From: Octopus vulgaris
Lineage: Eukaryota
NCBI GenBank assembly: GCA_951406725.2
Contig: OX597815.1
Location: 61,442,001 to 61,506,000 of the forward strand
Length of the DNA: 64,000 nt
Direction of reading: 5' to 3'
Shown in pieces: positions 32,089 through 32,199 of the stretch. The notes under the pieces were generated by a model, which did not search any database, was not told the DNA's origin, and saw only the letters and a program-made list of their open reading frames with translations. Positions within the stretch are counted from its first letter, which is position 1, and every line of letters starts with the position of its first letter. A program made the position numbers and the translations under genes.

Positions 32089-32199
32089 TCTCTGAAGAGG
32101 CCGTGAGAGATCCTTGTTAATGTCTCATTTATACCTGCTTTATGTGGCTAATAGGTTAAATGAGACATACTTGTCCTCACGGTCGAAACAGCTGTCAGA
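32089..32199 (+). ncRNA. Type I hammerhead ribozyme with 86 nt stem II domain
   Basis: TCT-CTGAAGA-GGCCGTGAG[...ATGTCTCATTTA...TAAATGAGACAT...]CTCACGGTC-GAAA-CAGCTG-TC-AGA. Confidence 0.85.

Follow-up and report, generated by a model that had tools for sequence, protein, structure and literature searches.

The locus described here raises the question of why a hammerhead ribozyme should carry a second stem of 86 nt, and what an arm of this size does for the element that bears it. The type I hammerhead lies at 32089-32199 on the plus strand of the window, a 64,000-nucleotide stretch of the Octopus vulgaris genome, and is recognized by its core sequence and its minimum free energy (MFE) fold. 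The initial annotation had called the core intact, and we agree: CTGAAGA (CUGAAGA in the RNA, C3 to A9) is at 32092-32098, GAAA at 32185-32188, and the palindrome CAGCTG at 32189-32194 is followed by TC at 32195-32196, with C17 at the predicted cut between 32196 and 32197. The CUGANGA and GAAA motifs, the A15.1-U16.1 pair, the NUH triplet and G10.1-C11.1 are those of a type I hammerhead, as is the arrangement of three helices around the core with stem I open and stem III stable only intermolecularly. Stem II (32099-32184) comprises a basal helix (32099-32110/32172-32184), an asymmetric internal loop, a 12 bp middle helix (32120-32131/32157-32168) and apical helices (32133-32139/32146-32156), and both the 9 bp basal helix and the nested 12 bp helix reported initially are present in the MFE fold. 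The basal helix is 12 bp long in the family, and the window copy has two private changes within it: C32109G, which breaks a pair, and C32183T, which turns a G-C pair into G-U. At -37.1 kcal/mol (z = -7.8), the fold of the 86-mer is matched by none of 200 shuffled sequences. Stem I had been described as only 3 bp; the proximal TCT/AGA pairing stands, but the description understates the stem because folding predicts a 2x2 loop and then eight further pairs (32079-32086/32202-32209), its two strands spanning 32079-32091 (TCT at 32089-32091) and 32197-32209 (beginning with AGA).

The stem III palindrome is present as reported, and can be refined to a self-complementary 8 nt segment that includes A15.1 and U16.1 (ACAGCTGT; 32188-32195). 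Among 10 sequences for which the active monomer fold was compared with the MFE fold, the active fold lies 5-12 kcal/mol higher in all 10, and the probability of the A15.1-U16.1 pair in monomer folding is at most 0.003. The eight base pairs of an intermolecular ACAGCUGU duplex are worth -11.1 kcal/mol, whereas the monomer hairpin costs +2.4 kcal/mol. Because the active monomer is costly and ACAGCUGU pairs favorably with a second copy, the hammerhead is predicted to cleave as an obligate dimer through this palindrome. One could instead imagine that the stem II arm makes a tertiary contact with stem I, or otherwise replaces the need for a dimer and yields an active monomer, since natural hammerheads commonly have loop I-loop II contacts and pseudoknots, and stem I here has a predicted internal loop and extension. 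We consider this very unlikely, as eight representatives share no conserved loop-to-flank pairing of the pseudoknot or kissing-loop kind, their best loop-to-flank duplexes being worth -1 to -5 kcal/mol at differing places, and the stem III palindrome is invariant in 20 of 20 relatives; this search covered Watson-Crick pairing. In the youngest subfamily the proximal stem I is only 2 bp.

The hammerhead had been attributed to a Penelope-like element (PLE), and this attribution is borne out. It sits in a 5'-truncated PLE copy (31592-32369, plus strand), 173 nt short of the copy's 3' end. This copy retains the 3' 778 bp of the element, in the pLTR region, and matches the 3' end of a longer locus (L045), which has reverse transcriptase (RT) and GIY-YIG frames upstream, at 85.6% identity across 814 bp. 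It is also 83-90% identical to dispersed copies with the same 3' end point. The copy is flanked by (TA)n tracts at 31566-31591 and 32369-32387, in keeping with the insertion preference of Hydra-clade elements; directly after the 3' tract is another dispersed repeat (32435-32618), 94% identical to 38741-38924. A search of the 2.8 Gb genome with 131 nt around the hammerhead yielded 1,495 candidates; the 40 that were scored are 95-100% identical to it. Longer copies have an RT and GIY-YIG frame upstream, across 2-2.7 kb of AU-rich sequence, and one of them (L081) has an open frame of 960 codons containing RIRWRI, SDKTNN, FDIQNYYTSI, GLYRDD and VYQ..YIG. Its protein matches nothing in Pfam or the PDB, and we assign the element to the Hydra clade by its motifs, the trees holding only proteins of this genome. 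The RW(K/R) and DKT motifs are present, the RT has a C-terminal GIY-YIG domain, the CxCX5C linker reads CNCRNKNKC, the C-terminal CxxC and CxH read CSLC and CIH, and the protein aligns in register with the rows of Fig. S7 in PMC8557442. Insertion into (TA)n, pLTRs, tails and inverted truncated copies are likewise as in that clade. The proteins of L081 and L087 contain long Asn-rich low-complexity insertions in the thumb and linker, and the CxCX5C linker motif is gone from the families of L088-L090.

At the 3' side, copies of the family end at either of two fixed points, some 200 or 380 nt past the cut site, with (TA)n after each, and the window copy stops at the first. A putative poly(A) signal, AATAAA, is at 32292-32297 on the plus strand, 96 nt beyond the cut; related families have A(A/T)TAAA at a comparable position, and a poly(A)-like signal sits before both 3' ends. 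The 180 nt tail between the two ends, which is missing from the window copy, contains conserved hairpins with apparent compensatory changes (L056:511-708, L003:2198-2394, L018:1063-1261 on the minus strand, and L100:4197-4395), and may serve in protein binding or priming. We rejected the idea of a non-autonomous element with a fixed 5' end because the 5' ends are scattered. Nor does the locus resemble a retrozyme, a short non-coding tandem unit, as it is single in the window and has a coding parent element. As to expression, contigs from four runs contain variants of the family, the contigs showing neither ends nor strand. The window copy itself is a dead fragment, and the interest lies in the class to which it belongs.

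The initial annotation had made its case for the insertion depend on conservation among genomic copies, and the arm proves to be fixed in the family. An exact family-core pattern (controls, 0) finds 1,353 long-arm copies, eight shorter ones, each with a different deletion, and no short or minimal form; no deletion variant of the stem II arm has thus been amplified within the reach of this pattern. Where related families share this stem I and stem III, their arms measure 85-122 nt, the longest (L272:6858-7038) being lengthened by a (TA)n expansion within the internal loop of stem II. Selection for pairing is apparent in 116 deduplicated copies, which were picked by similarity and are hence biased toward young ones. 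Substitutions in paired columns that are shared by at least 12 copies keep the pair in nine of 10 cases, as against 10 of 31 for private substitutions (Fisher p = 0.0025), and two pairs have passed through double changes, 32108:32174 as A-U/G-U/G-C and 32123:32165 as U-A/U-G/C-G. The fourth basal pair (32102:32181) is broken by a shared change in 64 of the 116 copies. The covariation that had been proposed as a check is seen in 20 relatives, with double changes at eight of 11 middle-helix pairs and a score of 0.241 (0.192 when shuffled) that none of 500 shuffles reaches and that lies above every slid control. These 20 sequences are related to one another, and the count was made on a structure that we specified, so the result leans toward that structure; RNAalifold on a sequence-only alignment recovers only the basal helices plus an inactive CUG/CAG pairing. 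We conclude that the family has a fixed long stem II that is selected for pairing.

What the arm is selected for is less easily decided. The reading that we prefer, and hold tentatively at a little short of an even chance, is that this is the terminal-repeat dimer hammerhead of a Hydra-clade PLE, in which stem II is a self-folding rod that would enable the circle to be cut out, rejoined and copied by the RT. The arm would act as a folding scaffold for the core, keeping it together in an untranslated region that is very AU-rich, having perhaps grown by slippage in AU-rich sequence, and would be kept paired because extra unpaired sequence would misfold the core. We favor the scaffold because arm length and sequence vary freely between families while pairing is kept. 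The main rival is that the arm is a family-specific docking site by which the element's RT-endonuclease, or a host protein, selects its RNA, which we regard as possible and on the unlikely side. Between two subfamilies, stem II identity is 87% and flank identity 52-62%, so that the arm sequence is conserved above its surroundings, a difference that also counts toward selection on its pairing. Across the 20 relatives the asymmetric internal loop is retained and three positions of stem II are invariant (G36, A48 and T50 of alignment A1), with an invariant A and U at the helix junction; the three positions fit a binding site as well as they fit a scaffold. The failure of any deletion variant to amplify would also be expected of a docking site, and the arms differ between families whose RTs differ. 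We note, however, that the minimal template of an Anolis PLE, from another clade, starts 20 nt into the ORF, beyond the start of stem II (PMC11167929), and that the separate conserved hairpins between the two 3' ends are better-placed candidates. Both observations weaken the docking reading, to which can be added that long-arm families have no loop motif in common.

The scaffold reading supposes that two ribozymes of one transcript would cut out and rejoin a unit-length circle and that the element's RT would copy it, and the terminal repeats bear on this directly. In 20 full-length copies with two pLTRs, the two repeats of one copy have 99.9% identity (15 pairs match completely), and repeats of different copies 97.2%. 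There are 33 variant events present in both repeats, 17 of them private to a copy (three partly shared with a truncated neighbor) and 16 belonging to subfamilies, as against eight one-sided events, none common to two copies on the same side. The two-repeat variants occur on both sides of the cut site. Both terminal repeats are therefore rebuilt from one template, because linear end-to-end copying would transmit the differences between repeats. One copy (L366; G000:C6:105672100-105679600) has repeats that differ at -212 and +181 by alleles of other copies and possibly derives from two templates, and at G000:C15:41704576-41704649 a junction at stem III/GAAA links a family hammerhead to one from a related family in inverted orientation, which suggests that templates were switched from one family to another.

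We propose that a cut-and-rejoined circle accounts for the one-template repeats, the read-through at the cut site and the poly(A)-like signal before both 3' ends. Strand transfer on uncut, terminally redundant RNA, or gene conversion, would also yield one-template repeats. The read-through itself, seen in 91 of 100 among the matches listed (of 1,104 copies), fits either a ligated circle or uncut RNA. In a hand tally of 56 copy 5' junctions, from which 19 of 76 rows with internal indels were left out and in which one palindrome was counted once, six fall exactly at the cut site, six at -4, and 25 at 0 to -9 (p = 0.0005). This apparent enrichment did not survive comparison with a downstream control (26 junctions in 43 bases, as against four in 12), tallied by hand in one subfamily with seven of 37 rows left out, where junctions number 0.60 per base downstream and 0.33 at 0 to -11. 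Copy 5' ends thus do not pile up at the cut site in these tallies, and we see no genomic sign that cleaved linear templates were used.

The lack of a junction spike is also what one would expect if the ribozyme barely cuts in vivo and uncut RNA is copied with strand transfer, the arm then being a double-stranded substrate for host machinery (editing, export or small RNA) or a hitch-hiking expansion. Minimal PLE hammerheads with low activity in vitro are on record (PMC4209133), and catalysis is dispensable for an Anolis PLE, whose hammerhead mutants insert normally in vitro (PMC11167929). We nonetheless think this improbable, as the core and palindrome are invariant across diverged families, and the private changes in the 116 copies (five A>G and seven T>C) include no A>G excess and so no footprint of ADAR editing. 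A further suggestion, that the upstream cut makes the 5' end of the mRNA and that the structure aids cap-independent translation, draws on full-length copies, in which the upstream repeat continues into the 5' UTR and the ATG follows the cut site by about 514 nt, and on the type I hammerheads of viral 5' UTRs, which promote translation. After cleavage, however, the long arm would remain on the upstream fragment, and the 'long helix II' of the viral examples is only 6 bp; there is accordingly little to recommend it. Of the scaffold reading, family membership by motifs, the fixation of the arm and selection on its pairing, the two fixed 3' ends and the one-template repeats are observed, and dimer cleavage, ligation into a circle, the role of the arm and its growth by slippage are inferences.

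Long stem II domains had also been reported at 29480, 31349 and 37977, and a relaxed hammerhead scan of both strands of the window finds all three to be real, with sequences unrelated to that at 32089 and with one altered core. That at 29487-29547 (minus strand) belongs to another family with a 42 nt stem II and the palindrome CCATGG, and has a relative at G000:C1:143739. The hammerhead-like motif at 31354-31435 (plus strand) has a 59 nt stem II, a 10 nt palindrome and the core CTCACGA, and is predicted to be inactive because G5 is changed. At 37981-38050 (plus strand) is a member of a further family with relatives in the genome and a 51 nt stem II (z only -1.3); it and its mirror (37637-37706, minus strand) lie in the right and left arms, respectively, of an inverted repeat that is perfect over 246 bp. 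This repeat (37594-38093), whose arms are separated by an 8 nt spacer and carry the hammerheads in opposite orientation, is a typical inverted PLE insertion and would form a long hairpin RNA. The window also holds fragments of Helitron Rep and PIF1 helicase (13654-16229 and 61846-62457) and a Tc1/mariner transposase frame of 288 aa (49657-50523, minus strand).

Long arms are not peculiar to this family. A genome census with an exact core and a 6 nt stem III gives 17,309 matches with spacers of 8-38 nt (control, 1,542), 41,025 with 39-69 nt (control, 1,650), 12,042 with 70-100 nt (control, 1,281) and 3,923 with 101-131 nt (control, 1,654); a 7 nt stem III, for which the census covers short spacers only, gives 25,643 (control, 1,785). 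The longer bins are inflated, since a strict filter on fetched loci (stem I of at least 3 bp, palindrome fully paired) passes 28 of 40, 18 of 49 and 1 of 30 for the three in order of length. Arms of 42-122 nt with unrelated sequences are found across many families, and several families whose proteins are 37-43% identical to that of this element have arms of 50-97 nt downstream of their Hydra frames. Short-arm Hydra families coexist in the same genome. Trees conflict on the origin of the arm, as the RT separates the short-arm families (94/94, on partial rows) and the endonuclease groups a family with a 45 nt arm with them (82/83). Retrozyme-like arrays at G000:C1:10836774-10838643 and C1:5011305-5012441 are built of tandem units of about 530-590 bp that all contain a long-arm hammerhead.

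The prediction that length-limited searches would miss such arms is correct. The published descriptor allows a stem II of 3-7 bp with a loop of 3-10 nt (PMC4209133), a limit of about 24-26 nt beyond which the long-arm bins lie, and an 86 nt stem II falls well outside it, although the short palindromic stem III and the location in a pLTR are those of the minimal PLE hammerheads. Rfam reports no hammerhead at its gathering score in the window and none at E<=10 in 29300-38200, because of the arm length. The suggestion of an undescribed subtype holds only in part. No account of long-armed animal PLE hammerheads was found in a literature search that covered supplements in part, the remainder of which may mention them; but the arms share no motif, are spread over many families, and have a plant counterpart of about 53 nt already tabulated. 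We therefore regard the long-armed hammerhead as a known ribozyme, from a known clade, that differs in length.

Several known systems come close to this one. The Hydra clade described by Craig et al. (2021) includes elements such as Hydra-1_Obim with the same type I hammerhead near the 3' end, the same (TA)n target, the same protein motifs and an ACAG..CUGU-type palindromic stem III (PMC8557442), and the published Hydra-1_Obim hammerhead is letter-identical in 11 of 27 pattern matches in the present genome. The Hydra hammerheads tabulated there have a stem II of about 12-26 nt, whereas it is 85-86 nt here and up to 122 nt in relatives, and the clade is given as 'generally <3 kb', a tendency rather than a strict limit, whereas the unit here is 5,558-5,634 bp (20 copies), or about 5.6 kb, with its 2-2.7 kb AU-rich 3' UTR and Asn-rich insertions (PMC8557442). 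The minimal PLE hammerheads of Cervera and De la Pena (2014) likewise have a short stem I, a palindromic stem III and G10.1-C11.1, and likewise are predicted to cleave as dimers, with a circle proposed to arise by cutting at both ribozymes and rejoining, but their 'larger than usual' helix II is 7-8 bp (PMC4209133). PLE-X1_sMoe of Selaginella has a 9 bp stem II with a 35 nt loop (about 53 nt; File S2, PMC8557442); it belongs to another clade, is a single and shorter case flagged only as deviating, and its table entry carries no covariation. Poseidon PAc of Anolis (Frangieh et al. 2024) likewise has two fixed RT starts past the hammerhead and an optional tail, although that tail is 30-40 nt rather than about 180 nt and the ORF starts in stem II rather than about 514 nt after the cut (PMC11167929). 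Animal non-LTR retrozymes also have pLTR-related type I hammerheads, with circular RNA intermediates, but are short non-coding tandem units, whereas the window copy derives by truncation from an autonomous coding element (PMC7229834; bioRxiv 10.64898/2026.07.22.740005).

A broader and more doubtful reading is that in a lineage of octopus Hydra elements stem II has become a family-specific domain of 40-120 nt that would both drive dimer cut-and-rejoin of a 5.6 kb circular template and itself be read by the element's own enzyme, in a form as numerous as the minimal one (about 40-50 thousand) and invisible to standard searches. Because descriptors and Rfam models cap stem II, the census also suggests that ribozymes in animal genomes have been undercounted by a large factor. 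The family is young, with intact reading frames and one-template repeats, which makes the proposed circle model directly testable and bears on the role of hammerheads in PLEs.
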